IMG/VR virus record: IMGVR_UViG_3300033076_000584
Location: 1-56,228 of that record
From: a virus
Lineage: Duplodnaviria > Caudoviricetes
Strand: one strand, 5' to 3'
DNA length: 56,228 bases
In this document: positions 14,899 through 19,415 of the stretch, in pieces
Numbering within the stretch: the stretch's first letter is position 1
Layout: every line of letters starts with the position of its first letter
Position numbers and translations under genes: made by a program
The notes under the pieces: model-generated
Database searches by the model: none
What the model saw: only the letters and a program-made list of their open reading frames with translations
What the model was told of the DNA's origin: nothing

Positions 14899-15086
14899 TA
14901 TGCGCTCCGATCTACAAAATGAGAGAAAGACCCGTCCGAGTTTTCCCGGCGGTTCACGAAATAGGGGCGGCCGCTGGCGATCACCCAGTTAAGCTTGTTA
15001 AGTTGAGCGCAGTGGTTTTGCAGGGCGTCGATCCCGTAGCGGGCCGGAGAAGCCTGCTCGCGGCTCTTTCGTAGCGTATCAGTCAT
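14898..15086 (-). CDS. Hypothetical protein downstream of the initiator
   Basis: Start MTDTLRKS, overlapping the initiator stop. Confidence 0.5.
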   Translation of the reverse strand: MTDTLRKSREQASPARYGIDALQNHCAQLNKLNWVIASGRPYFVNRRENSDGSFSHFVDRSA

Positions 15087-15822
15087 TATAATTTCCTTCG
15101 AGTATCTTCTGAAAATTGGCCTTCTTGAAGACCCAATCGAACGTGCAGCCCTTCCAGCCGTGATCACCCCGCAAGAAGGGGCTCATCTCGATGTTGTTGA
15201 ACACGGTCACAAAATCTTCGGTGTTGTATTGCTTGATGCGAGAGTTGATTAGCTGCCGACGCTCGGGCGTCAGGTCACGCACCCTCGGCCTACCAAGCTT
15301 GTCAGCAACAAGGTTCCATTCCCTAAAAACCTCATCAGCCTTGATCCGCTCTTCCTGCGTGTCTGAAACATCTGTTTCAGGCATACTCTCGTTAGAGAGT
15401 ATATCTTGGTTAATGGTTAATGGTTTATGGTTATTGGTTAGGGTTACGACCGGGTTGCCACTGGCATCCGACTGGAAACCCACTGGGTTTTCTTTGGGCT
15501 TCTTACCCACGGATTTTGGCCGTCCACCACGCTTGCCGTTCTCACGGTTGCGCTGCGCGCTCTTGTGGTAATCGGCAATGTCTGCCTCACAGCGAGCGTG
15601 TTTCCACCCGTCTTCGGTGCGCTCAAACATGTCTTGCAAGACGATCTCAACCACTTCGGCAGCCACCCGTATCCGTCTCGCAACCCACTGGGTTTCCAAC
15701 GGGATAGGGGCCTCGTTCTCGTAGTACATGTCGATCAGCCGACGGTAGGCCAGATCCTCTTCATTCGAGAGGTGGCGCGTCGAGCGGGCGTAATCGCCTA
15801 TATTGAATTTATAGTAGTGCAT
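15079..15822 (-). CDS. Replication initiator protein (YdaU/DUF1376 N-terminal domain)
   Basis: MHYYKFNIGDY...HLS.EEDLAYRRLIDMYY..E.PIP; ENGKRGGRPK linker; C-terminal FDWVFK.ANFQKILEGNY; start ATG 15822 with SD GGAGG. Confidence 0.85.
   Translation of the reverse strand: MHYYKFNIGDYARSTRHLSNEEDLAYRRLIDMYYENEAPIPLETQWVARRIRVAAEVVEIVLQDMFERTEDGWKHARCEADIADYHKSAQRNRENGKRGGRPKSVGKKPKENPVGFQSDASGNPVVTLTNNHKPLTINQDILSNESMPETDVSDTQEERIKADEVFREWNLVADKLGRPRVRDLTPERRQLINSRIKQYNTEDFVTVFNNIEMSPFLRGDHGWKGCTFDWVFKKANFQKILEGNYND
15405..15697. repeat. Candidate replication origin inside the initiator gene
   Basis: AT-rich TGGTT(A/T) tandem run at about 15407-15446; palindromic AACCCACTGGGTT at 15477-15489 and 15682-15694. 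Confidence 0.55.
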
Positions 15823-15823
15823 G

Positions 15824-15871
15824 TCAGCCTCCGTATTGCACACGGAGAGACAGCGGGGTATAAAAAGACAT
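15824..15871 (-). CDS. Putative leader peptide (15 aa) coupled to the replication initiator
   Basis: SD GAGGAGG, ATG 15871, MSFYTPLSLRVQYGG*; its TGA is 1 nt before the initiator ATG. Confidence 0.6.
   Translation of the reverse strand: MSFYTPLSLRVQYGG
15836..15864 (+). promoter_or_regulatory. Antisense sigma70 promoter
   Basis: TTGCAC-17 nt-TATAAA, pointing against the operon. Confidence 0.7.
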
Positions 15872-15940
15872 AACGTTGCCTCCTCTACAGGCGATGTTGG
15901 GGTGAGGCCGCCGCGAACCCGGTCTCACCCCCAAAACCTA
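15870..15940 (+). ncRNA. Putative counter-transcribed antisense RNA (about 70 nt)
   Basis: Two hairpins: AACGTTGCC/GGCGATGTT with CCTCCT at the loop, and GGGGTGAGGCCG/CGGTCTCACCCC; complementary to the leader-peptide SD and start. Confidence 0.55.
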
Positions 15941-15942
15941 AC

Positions 15943-16296
15943 TCATTGATAGATTGATCGCAAGTCATCATATTTGACTTTGGATTTTGGCCGCAAACCA
16001 AGGTAATGCTTGACGCTGGTCAGGTCCATTTTCATGATGTGAGCGATGTCCTGCGCGGTGTGGCGGTGCTTGAAATGCAGGGTCCGCACAAAGTCGGCTC
16101 GAGCCTCAACGCACTGCTTATCTCGGCCGTTGCCAAAGATATGGCGAGGCATCACGTTGTGCCGGTCGCACACCTCATCCGCAATCGGACGAAGCTGGGC
16201 GGGCACTTCCACCTCTTTTGGCACGATGATCGGCATCTTTAGGAACTCTTCCAGCGTCATTCTCCGACGTGGCAGGTTTTTGGTCATGCGTATCAT
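15943..16296 (-). CDS. DnaA C-terminal (domain IV)-like HTH protein
   Basis: I..EVC....V....I.G..R....V.AR........IA..M..D.TSV.H pattern. Confidence 0.7.
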   Translation of the reverse strand: MIRMTKNLPRRRMTLEEFLKMPIIVPKEVEVPAQLRPIADEVCDRHNVMPRHIFGNGRDKQCVEARADFVRTLHFKHRHTAQDIAHIMKMDLTSVKHYLGLRPKSKVKYDDLRSIYQ

Positions 16297-16841: not shown

Positions 16842-16905
16842 CGTATACATCGTTTTACACCCAATGCAATTTTTTTATTGACCTTGGGGTTGGCGCTGCT
16901 ATGGT
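16842..16905. promoter_or_regulatory. Back-to-back divergent promoters
   Basis: Minus strand TTGCAT-16-TATACG; plus strand TTGACC-16-(TGC)TATGGT; shared A/T tract between them. Confidence 0.65.
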
Positions 16906-16938: not shown

Positions 16939-17502
16939 ATGAGTGTGTATAAGAAGCTCAACGATGCCCGCACGATGGTGCATGCGCAGCCGTTGAAGAA
17001 GAGCGGCCGCAACACGTTTGCTGGCTATGACTATTTCGAACTGTCCGACTTTCTGATCCCGGCGCTGAACGCGTTTGAGATGGTTGGCCTGTGCGCCGTC
17101 ATCTCGTTTGATAACGAATATGCGACCATGCGGATCGTGGACATCGACACTGGCGAAGAGATCGTCATTACCTCTCCGATGGGCAGTGCATCCTTGAAGG
17201 GCTGCCATGAGGTGCAGAACATTGGCGCGGTTGAAACCTACCAGCGCCGCTATCTCTGGACGACCGCGCTCGAAATTGTGGAGCGGGATGCTCTGGAAGC
17301 CACAACCGGCCGCGACGCACCTGAGCCGAAGAAGGTTCTGGCTGACGACGCCCAGATTGCTGAGCTGATCACCATGATCGAGGTTACAGGCACCGACGTT
17401 GCCAGCCTGTGCCGCTTCTACAAGGTCGATGCCATCAAGCAATTGACCAAGGATCAGGCCGATCACGCAATTGCGTCCGTTAAGAAGAAGGTGTCGAAAT
17501 GA
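16939..17502 (+). CDS. erf: ERF-family single-strand annealing protein
   Basis: KKSGRN.FAGYDYFELSDF...QNIGAVETYQRRYL. Confidence 0.88.
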   Translation: MSVYKKLNDARTMVHAQPLKKSGRNTFAGYDYFELSDFLIPALNAFEMVGLCAVISFDNEYATMRIVDIDTGEEIVITSPMGSASLKGCHEVQNIGAVETYQRRYLWTTALEIVERDALEATTGRDAPEPKKVLADDAQIAELITMIEVTGTDVASLCRFYKVDAIKQLTKDQADHAIASVKKKVSK

Positions 17503-18113
17503 TTGAGCAGAACACACCCGAATGGCATCAGGCCCGTTGTGGCTCTCTGGGTGCCTCTGCCGTCCATGAAGCCCTCGCCAAGACCAAAACTGGCTGGGGT
17601 GCTGGCCGTGCCAATGCAAAGGCCCGTATCGTGCTGGAGCGCCTCACAGGCACGCCGCAGGAAAGCTTCACCAACGCTGCCATGCAGTGGGGCCATGATC
17701 AGGAGGACAACGCAGCCAATGCCTACGCCTTCCTGACGGGCAATGAGGTGCAGGTGTGCGGGATCTATAAGCACCCGTCGATTGAGGGTACGCACGCCTC
17801 GCCTGACCGCCTTGTGGGCGAAGAGGGCTTGGTAGAGATCAAGTGCCCAAATTCCGCCACACATCTCGACACGCTGCTGAGCAAGACAGTCCCGGCCAAA
17901 TACATCACCCAGATGCAGTGGCAGATGGCTGTCACCGGCCGCAAATGGTGCGACTTTGTCAGCTATGACCCCCGCTTCCCTGAGCATCATCAGGTGTTTG
18001 TGCAACGCGTCGAGCGGGACGACGAGCGCATCGCTGAGCTGGAAAAGGATGTGGCTGAGTTTCTGGCCGAGGTCGAAGCAGATCTGAAGGCGCTCGATGA
18101 AGGTCAATCATAA
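17499..18113 (+). CDS. YqaJ/lambda-type exonuclease
   Basis: EQNTPEWHQAR.G...AS, MQWG...E, ASPD....GLVEIKCP, QMQWQM...WCDFVSYDPR. Confidence 0.92.
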   Translation: MIEQNTPEWHQARCGSLGASAVHEALAKTKTGWGAGRANAKARIVLERLTGTPQESFTNAAMQWGHDQEDNAANAYAFLTGNEVQVCGIYKHPSIEGTHASPDRLVGEEGLVEIKCPNSATHLDTLLSKTVPAKYITQMQWQMAVTGRKWCDFVSYDPRFPEHHQVFVQRVERDDERIAELEKDVAEFLAEVEADLKALDEGQS

Positions 18114-18450
18114 ACGGATGAAGCCAAAGGCCGGTGCGGCCCCGACGGCTGAAGAGCGGCGCTTCATGGGCTGGGTGGCAGAGTGTGCCTGCCTTGCCTG
18201 TGGACGCCGTCCGGTGACCCTGCATCACGTGACCAGCGATGGCCACAAACGGATCTCACGCAGCCATAAGAGATTGGTTCCCCTGTGCGCCATGCACCAC
18301 CTGATCCAGCACGGCCCGACCATATCGGTTGAGGCTCTGGGCCATAAGGGGTTCAAGGAACGCTGGGGCGTCGATCTTCTGGCCGAGGCCGAAAGGCTTT
18401 GGGAGCAGTGGAATGAAGAGCATAATTCTAAAAACGAAGGCGCAGCGTGA
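18097..18450 (+). CDS. HNH-like zinc-binding protein (DUF968-like)
   Basis: CLACG...LHH...VPLCAMHH motif. Confidence 0.65.
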   Translation: MKVNHKRMKPKAGAAPTAEERRFMGWVAECACLACGRRPVTLHHVTSDGHKRISRSHKRLVPLCAMHHLIQHGPTISVEALGHKGFKERWGVDLLAEAERLWEQWNEEHNSKNEGAA

Positions 18451-18820
18451 CTATGCCAAGCAGCTCATTGACGAAGCCCCAGACAACTATGTGGTCTCGT
18501 TCAAAGAGCGCACCCGCAGCCTCGACCAAAATGCGCTTATGTGGGCGCTATTGGAAGACATTTCGGACGCAAAGCCCGGTGGGCGCGATCTGGACAAGGA
18601 AACATGGAAGGCAGTCTTCCTGTTCGAGATCGGCATCAAGGCACGTTTTGAGCCAAACCTTGGCGGGGACGGCATGGTTGTGATCCCGCCCAAGTCATCG
18701 ACTTTATCGGTCAGCCAATTCTCCGACCTGATCGAGTGTATCTATGCGTTTGGAGCAAACCACGGCATCGTATGGCGAGACTATACGCATGGCCTTATCG
18801 AAGAAAGAAACAACAAATGA
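18413..18820 (+). CDS. ninB: NinB/Orf-family recombination protein
   Basis: Start MKSIIL; RSLDQNALMWALL.DIS...WK..F...S.LSV.QFSDLIE.IYAFGA..GI.W. Confidence 0.85.
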   Translation: MKSIILKTKAQRDYAKQLIDEAPDNYVVSFKERTRSLDQNALMWALLEDISDAKPGGRDLDKETWKAVFLFEIGIKARFEPNLGGDGMVVIPPKSSTLSVSQFSDLIECIYAFGANHGIVWRDYTHGLIEERNNK

Positions 18821-19053
18821 GCGAACAAGTTAGTGCTGATGAGCTGCGTCTGCTGATCGAGCGGATTGAGGAGCTGGAGGCTGAAAAGCAGGAAATCATA
18901 GACTGTGTGAAGGAAACGTACAGCGAAGCCAAGTCACGTGGCTATGACACCAAGATCATGCGCCAGATCGTCCGCCTGCGGAAGATGGAAGCCCACGCCC
19001 GTCAAGAAGCCGACATGCTTCTGGACACCTATCGCGCAGCATTGGGGATCTGA
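18817..19053 (+). CDS. gapR: GapR-like nucleoid-associated protein (DUF2312)
   Basis: ELRLLIERIEELEAEK..I....KE.YSEAKSRGYDTKIMRQIVRLRK......E...LLD.Y..ALG. Confidence 0.9.
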   Translation: MSEQVSADELRLLIERIEELEAEKQEIIDCVKETYSEAKSRGYDTKIMRQIVRLRKMEAHARQEADMLLDTYRAALGI

Positions 19054-19055
19054 TC

Positions 19056-19415
19056 ATGCAGGTAATCACAATCAAGGGAAACATCGGCAAGGATGGCACC
19101 GTCAAGGACGTTCGCGGCCGGGATGTGTTGTCGTTCTCTGTCGGCGTAAAGCAGGGCTATGGCGATAACACGTCAACCAACTGGTACCGGGTGCAGGTGT
19201 GGGGCAAGATGGCCCAGACACTACTCCCCAAGGCCGTAAAGGGCGTGACGGTCATTGCGATGGGCAACCTTAAAGTTAGCGAATATCAAGGCAAGCCAAG
19301 CTTTGATGTTGACGTGGCCGACGCAAATCACGTTAATTTTGTTGGCGCGCCCAAGGCTGAGAGCCGACCGGCCGCTCCTGCGTTTGACGATCTATCGGAC
19401 GACGTTCCATTTTGA
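19056..19415 (+). CDS. ssb: Single-stranded DNA-binding protein
   Basis: GNIGKD, FSVGV, TNWYRVQVWGK; acidic DDVPF tail. Confidence 0.92.
   Translation: MQVITIKGNIGKDGTVKDVRGRDVLSFSVGVKQGYGDNTSTNWYRVQVWGKMAQTLLPKAVKGVTVIAMGNLKVSEYQGKPSFDVDVADANHVNFVGAPKAESRPAAPAFDDLSDDVPF

Follow-up and report, generated by a model that had tools for sequence, protein, structure and literature searches.

The question raised by this locus is whether the short gap in front of a phage replication initiator gene holds a control device of the plasmid type. Several plasmid groups set their copy number in the classic way, by an antisense RNA and a leader peptide that together govern synthesis of the initiator. The locus lies in a stretch of viral DNA of 56,228 nt, which was analysed as a whole and is called the window here. 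All genes of the locus are on the minus strand, and the gap between the upstream ORF and the DUF1376 ORF comprises the 120 nt from 15823 to 15942, between the upstream TGA (15945-15943) and the initiator ATG (15822-15820), as given in a preliminary description of this DNA. The three interlocking parts that this description placed in the gap, namely a leader ORF, an inverted repeat and an antisense promoter with its RNA, were all found at the positions given there (Table 1). Only one copy of the arrangement, hereafter the cassette, is present in the window, and the idea of a repeated regulatory cassette was rejected.

Table 1. Features of the gap and of the genes on either side of it, with positions in the window
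Feature	Position	Strand	Basis or remark
Replication initiator, 247 aa, N-terminal DUF1376	15079..15822	-	Pfam and PHROGs
mRNA hairpin pairing the initiator SD GGAGG (15832-15828) and AUG	15819..15854	-	MFE fold
Leader ORF, 15 codons and stop, MSFYTPLSLRVQYGG	15824..15871	-	ATG 15871-15869, TGA 15826-15824
Putative antisense promoter, TTGCAC (15836-15841), 17-nt spacer, TATAAA (15859-15864)	15836..15864	+	read from the sequence
Predicted counter-transcribed RNA, about 60 nt, SL1 and SL2	15870..15931	+	fold and covariance model
SL1 of the antisense RNA, 10-bp stem (15872-15881/15889-15898), 7-nt loop CCUCUAC	15872..15898	+	fold
Leader SD GAGGAGG, proposed target of the antisense RNA	15879..15885	-	7 nt before the leader ATG
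SL2, long G+C-rich hairpin	15899..15931	.	folds of both strands
Putative sense promoter, TTGCGA (15963-15958), 17 nt, TAGGTT (15940-15935)	15935..15963	-	read from the sequence
Upstream gene, 117 aa, weak likeness to the DnaA C-terminal HTH	15943..16296	-	ORF and Pfam

The initiator matched Pfam PF07120 over residues 2-83 with an E value of 5e-24 (84.9 bits; cut-off 30.1). Its C-terminal domain is common to O-like and DnaD-like phage initiators, and its matches in PHROGs are annotated as primosomal, replication initiation O-like and DnaD-like helicase loader proteins. The likeness of the upstream gene to PF08299 (DnaA_C) is below the 31.5-bit cut-off (E 6e-4, 20 bits). Homologues of this gene stand before the leader in four other loci (L007, L281, L093 and L002), and the -35-like hexamer assigned to the putative sense promoter falls within its final codons.

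The coordinates agree with the preliminary description of a 15-codon ORF with the strong SD GAGGAGG, whose stop is separated from the initiator ATG by 1 nt. At the sequence level, the leader is a reading frame that possesses an SD and is coupled to the start of the initiator. The cassette was found in 51 loci, which comprise 47 distinct sequences and group into 14 clusters at less than 75% identity. Every locus is on a contig of an uncultured virus or a metagenome. The loci are related to one another, which limits the independence of the counts given below. They were collected by protein-based and leader-pattern searches, in which the motifs inside the ORF were not required. The initiators that follow have four types of N-terminal region, with PHROGs annotations of replication initiation, DnaD-like or primosomal proteins. 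In 48 of the 51 loci, a leader ORF of 14-23 codons with a strong SD overlaps or abuts the downstream start with its stop codon: the two form ATGA in 36 of these loci, the stop precedes the start by 1-2 nt in 10, and the overlap is 20 nt in 2. The sequence upstream of the leader ATG in the relatives is AGGAGG, replaced in two leaders by AGGAGC or GGGAGC, and in the 50 leaders (of 51) that could be read by script, 5-9 nt separate it from the ATG. The peptides themselves are mutually unrelated across the 51 loci, with no conservation at the peptide level. In 3 of the 51 leaders, the start codon is fused in frame to an HNH endonuclease ORF; this means that the leader start heads a real coding frame. 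It had been proposed that the initiator is translated only through coupling to the leader. The architecture in the 48 loci supports the coupling, but the word "only" seems too strong, because the initiator has a good SD of its own.

The closest phage relative (L082/L013) lacks the cassette. Its upstream gene is 92% identical, and downstream it carries another module, consisting of a small Zn-finger-like ORF and an initiator with a different N-terminus. Therefore, it affords no direct comparison. A blastn search with the leaders gave no match in 50,697 GenBank phage records or in 72,556 PLSDB plasmid records. Two leader patterns were also searched in a prokaryote genome collection; the 30 + 4 hits were chance-like and without the architecture (the four were judged by eye).

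The antisense promoter lies within the leader ORF, and the RNA start predicted from it is at 15870-15872. The preliminary description called this promoter near-consensus. The hexamers and the 17-nt spacer are indeed present on the opposite strand, but 8 of the 12 positions agree with the consensus and, judged by E. coli rules, the T expected at -7 is missing, so that "near-consensus" overstates it. It was absent from the list produced by a promoter scan. Sites with three or fewer mismatches to the consensus numbered 22 in the window against 20.5 expected. Since such a match in a single sequence is not above chance, it is solely conservation in the relatives that gives the antisense promoter its significance.

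This conservation is as follows. A TA stands exactly 21 nt from a GCAA in 51 of 51 leaders, where the occurrence of GCAA is partly by construction, because it served as the alignment anchor. The TA and the GCAA are the sole invariant columns of the ORF body among the 14 cluster representatives, the identity of which is 41% in this region. On the opposite strand they read TTGC-N19-TA, that is, -35 and -10 elements with a 17-nt spacer, again in all 51. These bases are not confined to whole codons: the last base is always T in codon 4 and always G in codon 11, and the only Gln codon used is CAA. The base at -7 is C in 32 leaders, A in 14, G in 3 and T in 2. It should be mentioned that the invariant C of TTGC is not needed by a -35 element, which hints that GCAA is under an extra constraint; it doubles as the 5' arm of an mRNA helix in the ATGA group. 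A nut-like boxA/boxB, a GNRA tetraloop, a sigma-54 promoter and an IHF site were each considered for GCAA and ACATCGCC, and by eye none fitted across the clades.

A transcript from the plus strand would begin at this promoter and carry two hairpins. In the window, the antisense strand from 15870 to 15935 folds into two hairpins at -35.3 kcal/mol with a z value of -5.85 (0 of 200 shuffles as good), compared with a z value of -1.76 for the sense strand. This fold corresponds to the two-hairpin antisense RNA carrying CCUCCU that had been described. The top of the SL1 stem and the loop together form the anti-SD GCCUCCU. SL2 would come last in the antisense RNA and first in the mRNA, as the 3' and the 5' hairpin, respectively. 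Neither strand has a U-run after SL2, which leaves the 3' end of the antisense RNA unexplained.

SL1 and SL2 fold on the antisense strand in all 47 distinct sequences, including all 14 that were folded first, and both helices are recovered by RNAalifold. The sequence of SL2 is wholly different between the clades and its pairing is retained, with double changes in 5 of the 7 basal pairs. Of the 46 distinct rows, 41-43 retain the three G.U/U.G pairs of SL1, which would turn into A.C mismatches on the mRNA strand. One SL1 pair covaries (A-U in 34, U-A in 9). The mean energy of SL1 is -11.8 kcal/mol on the antisense strand and -4.8 kcal/mol on the mRNA strand, and the antisense form is the more stable in 47 of 47. 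The energy gap between the strands lies almost wholly in SL1, as SL2 forms equally well in the mRNA. In the alignment fitted to the covariance model (A2), a procedure that favours pairing, and with 30 of the 46 distinct rows from one clade, 96.5% of the cells pair compared with 35-51% when the alignment is slid, and the covariation score is 0.230 compared with 0.122 (0 of 500 shuffles as high). Within the 30-row clade, the SL1 stem is invariant, whereas the loop 3' of CCU occurs in 19 versions among 29 leaders; the ORF body of this clade shows 0.29 bit per site. A hypervariable loop over a fixed stem is consistent with repression in cis and in trans and with a role in specificity, but is not proof of either.

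The covariance model (R1) matched at leaders only, in about 2.1 Mb of fetched loci; from the prokaryote genome collection, L318 (36 bits) and L298 (30 bits) match it over the full length and are without the TA/GCAA leader ORF. A match to a ctRNA model of Rfam had been suggested as a check. Release 15 (4227 families) gave no hit in the window leader at E up to 10; for 8 further leader loci the limit was an E value of 1, and again nothing matched. Assembled contigs from two metatranscriptomes cover 15496-15858 of a relative of about 96% similarity and are blind to strand and ends. Three sequencing runs, all of them as assembled contigs, contain the stretch almost in full, and the RNA-labelled runs contain small shares of it. 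The uORF, the antisense -35/-10 and the covarying stem, conservation of which in homologous loci the preliminary description proposed as a check, are conserved in the relatives, the uORF in 48 of the 51 loci. Sequence and comparison together demonstrate the parts, their conservation and the predicted strand-specific structure. We infer from them that the antisense RNA is made and represses the initiator, and that translation of the leader is required.

The inverted repeat that buries the GGAGG of the initiator was confirmed in the window. It consists of CTCCGT (15847-15842), GTGCAAT and ACGGAG (15834-15829) with outer TGTC/GACA, and the predicted hairpin has -17.0 kcal/mol (z -3.0; 2 of 200 shuffles as good). 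The 3' half of the leader ORF holds this hairpin, with the conserved GCAA in the loop. A similar hairpin folds in each relative, but without a common register: RNAalifold found no helix occluding the SD that is common to 7 DUF1376 leaders, and a shared helix of this kind was rejected, as none is in register in the closest DUF1376 relatives. Pairing of the ribosome-binding site in the relatives was 0.68 compared with 0.63 for composition-matched shuffles, with 9 of 10 slightly above the shuffle mean. In the ATGA group, a semi-conserved helix lies just before the start (117 of 156 cells paired, compared with 37-69 when slid).

The putative sense promoter of the window, a weak match with 7 of 12 consensus bases, ends 3 nt before SL2. 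Of 45 distinct leaders, 33 have a promoter-like pair whose end is no more than 2 nt from the start of the model, which is the end of SL2. Taken together, these features make it probable that the gap is a plasmid-type (R1- or I-complex-like) translational switch for the initiator, composed of a cis-antisense RNA and a leader peptide. The mRNA would begin at or just before SL2 and continue with a single-stranded stretch bearing the strong SD and the leader ORF. Ribosomes completing the leader ORF would melt the hairpin over the SD and AUG of the initiator; in relatives without an initiator SD, they might reinitiate at the overlapping AUGA. Synthesis of the initiator would thus follow translation of the leader. 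From TTGCAC-17-TATAAA, a two-hairpin RNA of about 60 nt would be produced, the SL1 loop of which displays the anti-SD. This RNA would pair with the leader and cover the SD and AUG of the leader ORF, so that translation of both leader and initiator is turned off. Each new genome copy brings a further copy of the antisense gene, and supply of the initiator would therefore drop as copies build up. In addition, transcriptional interference may contribute, because the two promoters face each other about 75 bp apart. As regards the switch proposed in the preliminary description, the leader coupling and the two-hairpin anti-SD RNA are supported by the comparison, but the near-consensus promoter and a conserved SD-burying helix are not.

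The same features might be explained in other ways. The leader coupling could be real without any regulatory antisense RNA, if SL1 and SL2 are strand-specific hairpins of single-stranded DNA that serve as a priming or single-strand initiation signal or as part of an origin, with another DNA-level role for TTGC...TA. The invariable position beside an initiator gene is in line with this, as are the lack of a terminator after SL2 and of a T at -7 in 49 of the 51 leaders. Furthermore, G.T pairs stabilise DNA hairpins too, so that strand asymmetry alone does not prove an RNA. However, this explanation does not account for the exact -35/-10 geometry of the only invariant bases in the ORF, in the right orientation and about 7 nt upstream of SL1, or for a hypervariable loop above an invariant stem, and the element is unchanged in front of four different DNA-binding initiator N-termini; we regard it as unlikely. 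Similarly low in probability is a real antisense promoter that acts chiefly by interference with, or occlusion of, the facing sense promoter, with no role for RNA-RNA pairing at the leader SD as the main mechanism. The promoter-like pair at the end of SL2 means that antisense transcription runs into the sense promoter, which together with the missing terminator is what such a mechanism would use, but it would need neither the conserved SL1 with its G.U pairs, covariation and anti-SD loop nor a hypervariable recognition loop.

It is also conceivable, though rather improbable, that the leader is an element of the mRNA 5' UTR under protein control, a stabilising 5' hairpin with a site for binding of a host factor or phage protein or for ribosome standby, and that the antisense features are by-products. 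The equal stability of SL2 in the mRNA, its placement at the mRNA 5' end by the sense promoter, and the conserved blocks ACATCGCC and AGGAGGCAACG, which are longer than an SD requires, would suit such an element. These two blocks are, however, exactly the two arms of SL1, which on the mRNA strand has the three A.C mismatches and its lower mean stability, and the TA and GCAA are left unexplained. Finally, promoter-like matches of this quality occur at the chance level in the window, and the gap might be an ordinary one in which a short ORF, an inverted repeat and promoter-like hexamers coincide by accident. Maintenance of the architecture in 51 loci and 14 diverged clusters, with covariation, makes chance extremely unlikely.

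The translational switch that we favour has counterparts among known systems. In plasmid R1 (IncFII), the antisense RNA CopA acts against the leader of the initiator mRNA, translation of tap is coupled to that of repA, the repA ribosome-binding site is within a structure, and feedback operates through gene dosage. The analogy drawn earlier with CopA/tap/repA appears to fit, as does one with the I-complex: the present locus would likewise combine a cis-antisense RNA against the initiator leader, a coupled short ORF, a structured ribosome-binding site of the initiator and dosage feedback. It differs from R1 in that there is no sequence or Rfam relation, the initiator is of the phage DUF1376/O-like type and not RepA, the antisense promoter is inside the leader ORF with the first hairpin covering the leader SD, no CopB-like repressor was seen, and the carrier is a phage of 56 kb that lacks partition genes. 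The OOP RNA of phage lambda is a short antisense RNA just upstream of the initiator gene and read away from it; it overlaps the end of cII and has a normal terminator, and it involves neither a leader peptide nor an anti-SD directed at O. Position and direction are alike, whereas the RNA predicted here would be aimed at a leader SD, the leader ORF in turn being coupled to the initiator. ColE2 RNAI, pMV158 RNAII and the antisense RNAs of pT181 and pIP501 are small structured RNAs against the rep mRNA leader, which act on the rep ribosome-binding site or by attenuation and without a leader peptide. The RNA predicted here is likewise small, structured and complementary to the leader, and some of those RNAs have two hairpins as well; the cassette adds the leader peptide. 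For the I-complex plasmids, one paper states that translation of a leader peptide is required for expression of the downstream initiator, and that a small antisense RNA encoded upstream blocks leader translation, sets the copy number and causes incompatibility in trans (PMC10286972). The same three-part logic seems to apply here as in that complex (IncI1, IncB/O, IncK and IncZ, with RNAI, repB/repY and repA/repZ), and the variable RNA of the cassette also fits a specificity role. Unlike the I-complex, the cassette has two hairpins instead of one major stem-loop, gave no Rfam hit, and is found in phages with no counterpart among the plasmid records searched.

No description of such control as a conserved module of phage replication genes was found in the literature searched, in Rfam 15 or by blastn of the phage and plasmid records. 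The phage has no integrase, as had been noted, and neither ParA nor ParB was found. Nothing speaks in favour of the low-copy carrier state suggested earlier: the integrase is missing, yet partition proteins are missing too, which leaves copy control without an obvious function. One tentative possibility, which we hold to be rather less than even, is that non-integrating phages use the cassette as a portable "incompatibility" module that diversifies in specificity. In that case, the antisense RNA would confine the phage's own initiator to an early burst, and in trans it would silence the initiator of closely related co-infecting phages. Pressure from this exclusion might diversify 4-6 loop bases while the stem stays fixed. 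As a self-contained unit of two promoters, RNA and leader, the module could be swapped between the four unrelated initiator N-termini, and its conserved DNA might offer a landing site to homing HNH endonucleases, which would hijack the leader start codon.

The comparison shows a single regulatory cassette that moves between unrelated initiator domains. If the RNA is made and represses, a group of uncultured environmental phages that seem to lack an integrase would meter their initiator by genome dosage. Such metering would offer a concrete way to time early replication or to keep it in check, and perhaps a basis for exclusion among related phages, and the covariance model with its alignment would represent a new candidate RNA family.

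The window record is rated 100% complete in IMG/VR (56,228 bp). On its minus strand, a small HTH gene, a DUF1064 gene, a 117-aa gene with a weak DnaA C-terminal match, a gap, and the gene of a 247-aa protein follow one another. This protein, the putative initiator, carries DUF1376 at its N-terminus (PF07120, E 5e-24), and its relatives are labelled primosomal, replication-initiation O-like or DnaD-like in PHROGs. YqaJ, RecA-dependent nuclease, NinB and SSB genes are on the + strand opposite the initiator operon, an arrangement like that of lambdoid early regions. The recombination genes (17499-19415, +) diverge from the HTH-to-initiator operon in a lambdoid-like early layout, and a promoter-like TTGACC-16-TATGGT with an upstream TG (16878-16905, +) faces them. 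The leader ORF, the inverted repeat and the antisense TTGCAC-17-TATAAA were all read in the sequence where the preliminary description had placed them. It should be mentioned that a 42-codon + strand ORF (15821-15949), whose start lies ahead of the putative antisense promoter, covers the entire gap.

Features of the gap before the initiator gene in the window
Feature	Position	Strand	Details
Gap before initiator	15823-15942		120 nt
Leader ORF	15871-15824	-	15 codons; GAGGAGG 7 nt upstream; stop 1 nt before initiator ATG
Inverted repeat	within gap	mRNA strand	CTCCGT/ACGGAG, outer TGTC/GACA
Putative antisense promoter	15836-15864	+	TTGCAC-17-TATAAA
mRNA hairpin	15854-15819	-	-17.0 kcal/mol, z -3.0
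Putative antisense RNA, two hairpins	15870-15935	+	-35.3 kcal/mol, z -5.85

The antisense promoter had been called near-consensus, which it is not: it matches 8 of 12 consensus bases, lacks the T at the end of the -10 hexamer and was unlisted by the promoter scan, and sites with up to three mismatches number 22 in the window against 20.5 expected. No Rfam family, ctRNA families included, matches the leader. Since the promoter match is unremarkable in the window alone and Rfam gave no match, the case rests on relatives. A protein search with the initiator N-terminal domain yielded 80 viral and 80 metagenome loci. Homologous leaders lie upstream of initiators of 68-97% identity (L003-L008, viral; L093-L099, metagenome), and the leader uORF was absent where identity was 59% or lower (L002, 53%; L100, 59%). 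Two DNA patterns drawn solely from the untranslated leader part recovered many further leaders, and a covariance model (R1), built from 14 leaders (alignment A1), had strong matches only at such leaders when all fetched loci (about 2.1 Mb) were scored. The set analysed comprises 51 loci, 47 distinct by sequence (alignment A2: 50 rows, 46 distinct), whose leader-ORF bodies form 14 clusters below 75% identity. The cassette of leader ORF and putative antisense RNA was not found in representative prokaryote genomes, GenBank phages or PLSDB plasmids.

In the closest phage (L082/L013), the upstream gene is 92% identical, but another module occupies the place of the cassette. This module, a small Cys-rich ORF and a different initiator N-terminus, lies between the upstream gene, with the mosaic joint immediately after its stop, and an initiator C-terminus of 69% identity (L082:3300-3700 and L013:2400-3100 against window 15079-15945). 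The best full-length initiator relative (L002:2668-3003, 53% identity) retains an SL2-like hairpin, SL2 being the second predicted hairpin of the antisense RNA, with a model score of only 20.7 bits; an 81-aa Cys-rich ORF replaces the short leader ORF, again with TGA-G-ATG at its junction with the initiator. A close variant resembling L093, represented by contigs in runs X15 and X16 (compared at window 15898-15919 and 15840-15887), departs from the window chiefly in the loop of the first hairpin (SL1), at the apex of SL2 and in base five of the antisense -35. Its helix arms are mostly retained, with one base missing at the SL1 5' foot (15872).

The leader ORF has 14-23 codons in 48 of the 51 loci. 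AGGAGG precedes its ATG (AGGAGC or GGGAGC in two leaders), at a distance of 5-9 nt in 50 of 51, those readable by script. Its end overlaps the downstream start as ATGA in 36 of the 48, lies 1-2 nt before it in 10 and overlaps it by 20 nt in two. From cluster to cluster the peptides have essentially nothing in common; it is the position of the ORF that is conserved and not its product. In the other three loci, the leader start and first 11 codons are fused in frame to an HNH endonuclease ORF (Pfam HNH), which argues that the leader start is a working translation start. These fusions are in L228:3898-4362 (+), L240:6266-6682 (-) and L179. In two further loci (L292:6058-6594, -; L294) an ORF begins at a GTG right behind the leader SD; it is HNH-like in L292 and merely short in L294. 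HNH endonucleases may use the conserved leader DNA for homing. Many relatives have no initiator SD, only AUGA, and coupling is the natural reading of this arrangement. From these sequence features, the leader is very probably translated and coupled to the initiator.

The two-hairpin fold of the putative antisense RNA in the preliminary description is present in both the window and its relatives. None of 200 shuffles folded as well as the window RNA, whereas its complement on the mRNA strand has a z of only -1.76. All 14 leaders folded first form SL1 and SL2 on the antisense strand. The SL1 stem is of 8-12 bp and carries a 7-nt loop (9 in L004) starting with CCU (CCC in L094); SL2 is long and G+C-rich, with a sequence wholly different from clade to clade. 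RNAalifold found both helices even with a plain MAFFT alignment. In A2, which was fitted to the model and so favours pairing, the paired share of cells is 96.5%, compared with 35-51% once the partner is slid, and the covariation score is 0.230 vs 0.122, reached by none of 500 shuffles. Double changes occur in 7 of 17 pairs; one SL1 pair switches between A-U (34 rows) and U-A (nine). Three further SL1 positions have a G.U or U.G pair in 41-43 of 46 rows, which would be an A.C mismatch on the mRNA strand; the strand was therefore assigned as antisense. SL1 averages -11.8 kcal/mol on this strand and -4.8 on the mRNA strand, and all 47 distinct sequences fold more stably as antisense. The conserved mRNA-leader blocks ACATCGCC and AGGAGGCAACG are the two arms of SL1, whose stem top and loop hold the anti-SD GCCUCCU. 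In the largest clade (30 distinct rows) the SL1 stem is without variation, 29 leaders have 19 versions, of differing length, of the loop after CCU, and the adjacent ORF body has 0.29 bit per site. Plasmid antisense RNAs have recognition loops of this kind, fast-changing on an invariant stem. By this analogy the SL1 loop might be a recognition loop, which is suggestive only, as an unconstrained loop would look alike.

Aligned on GCAA, the ORF bodies (mean identity 41% among 14 cluster representatives) have as invariant columns only TA and, 19 nt on, GCAA. In all 51 leaders TA precedes GCAA by exactly 21 nt; as GCAA is the alignment anchor, the TA spacing alone is an independent count. Codon 4 is TAT, AAT, ATT, TCT, TTT, CCT or ACT, always with final T; A is constant as the first base of codon 5 and G as the last base of codon 11, and codon 12 is always CAA, never CAG. 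With this disregard for reading frame, the selection is at the nucleotide level. On the opposite strand these bases read TTGCnn-17 nt-TAnnnn, the key -35 and -10 positions at canonical spacing, and SL1 begins about 7 nt after the -10 hexamer. Against a promoter, only two of 51 leaders have T as the final -10 base, and the invariant C of TTGC exceeds what a -35 requires. In addition, GCAA in the ATGA group also forms the 5' side of a short mRNA helix immediately ahead of the initiator start; 117 of 156 cells are paired there (37-69 on sliding), and one pair alternates between G-C (10) and A-T (nine). The antisense RNA is probably made, and, if made, it would very probably be repressive.

A promoter-like pair is also present on the mRNA strand (e.g., TTTACA-16-TATGTA; TTGCGA-17-TAGGTT in the window). 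In 33 of 45 distinct leaders, no more than 2 nt separate its end from the modelled SL2 end, which would put the mRNA start at SL2 or within it. Some 75 bp would lie between these facing promoters, and antisense transcripts would extend into the sense one. Neither strand has a U-run after SL2, which leaves the antisense RNA 3' end unexplained.

The hairpin proposed to bury the initiator SD is clear in the window. DUF1376-type relatives each fold a similar hairpin, but RNAalifold found no helix in common register among seven of them. Pairing probability of the initiator RBS was 0.68, against 0.63 with shuffled 5' arms, and stands out only in the window and L093 (4/100 each), L280 (7/100) and L095 (8/100). 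The modelled hairpin is thus supported in the window; in relatives it is plausible, and selection on a discrete helix is not evident.

Plasmid R1 (CopA/tap/repA) combines an antisense RNA, a leader peptide and an initiator. In I-complex plasmids, as described in PMC10286972, the initiator is expressed only if an upstream leader peptide is translated; an antisense RNA blocks this translation and sets copy number and incompatibility. The phage cassette has the same logic, but no sequence or Rfam relation to these systems: its initiator is phage O-like or DUF1376, the putative antisense promoter lies within the leader ORF, the first hairpin would directly cover the leader SD, there is no terminator, and the carriers are apparently non-integrating phages. 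Lambda OOP RNA has only its position in common with it. The full-text literature searched, to which subscription journals did not belong, held no account of the cassette or of DUF1376-gene regulation. Leader-peptide and antisense-RNA control of the initiator as a whole seems a likely mechanism. By comparison with relatives, the copy-control interpretation was largely upheld for the leader ORF and the antisense RNA; for the SD hairpin it was upheld only in part, and for the lifestyle it was not. The cassette is a known control logic in a new variant, and it is also a candidate new RNA family.

The cassette precedes four initiator N-terminal types (DUF1376, HTH_36 and two without a Pfam family), all labelled replication initiation, DnaD-like or primosomal in PHROGs; this means that its constant partner is not the DNA-binding domain of the initiator. 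Several types, including that of the window, have a common C-terminal domain, and the leader cassette therefore travels with a modular initiator. This domain is at window 15079-15400 (about residues 135-247) and in the L268, L246, L177 and L204 proteins; a GW(K/Q)..FDW/F motif is near its end, behind unrelated N-termini, in at least three of the four types (three compared). A domain search of the window gave no tyrosine or serine recombinase, ParB_N or ParA-type (AAA_31) domain, and no tyrosine integrase was found in five other leader-bearing viral records (96-100% complete). A protein with a ParB_N domain (416-463 aa), not necessarily a partition protein, is encoded in two of these five. Since no integrase or partition domain was found in the window, and the cassette in none of the plasmids and genomes searched, the proposed low-copy, plasmid-like carrier state is without support. 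A dosage-dependent restriction of the initiator during lytic growth, or an exclusion of related co-infecting phages, would fit better.
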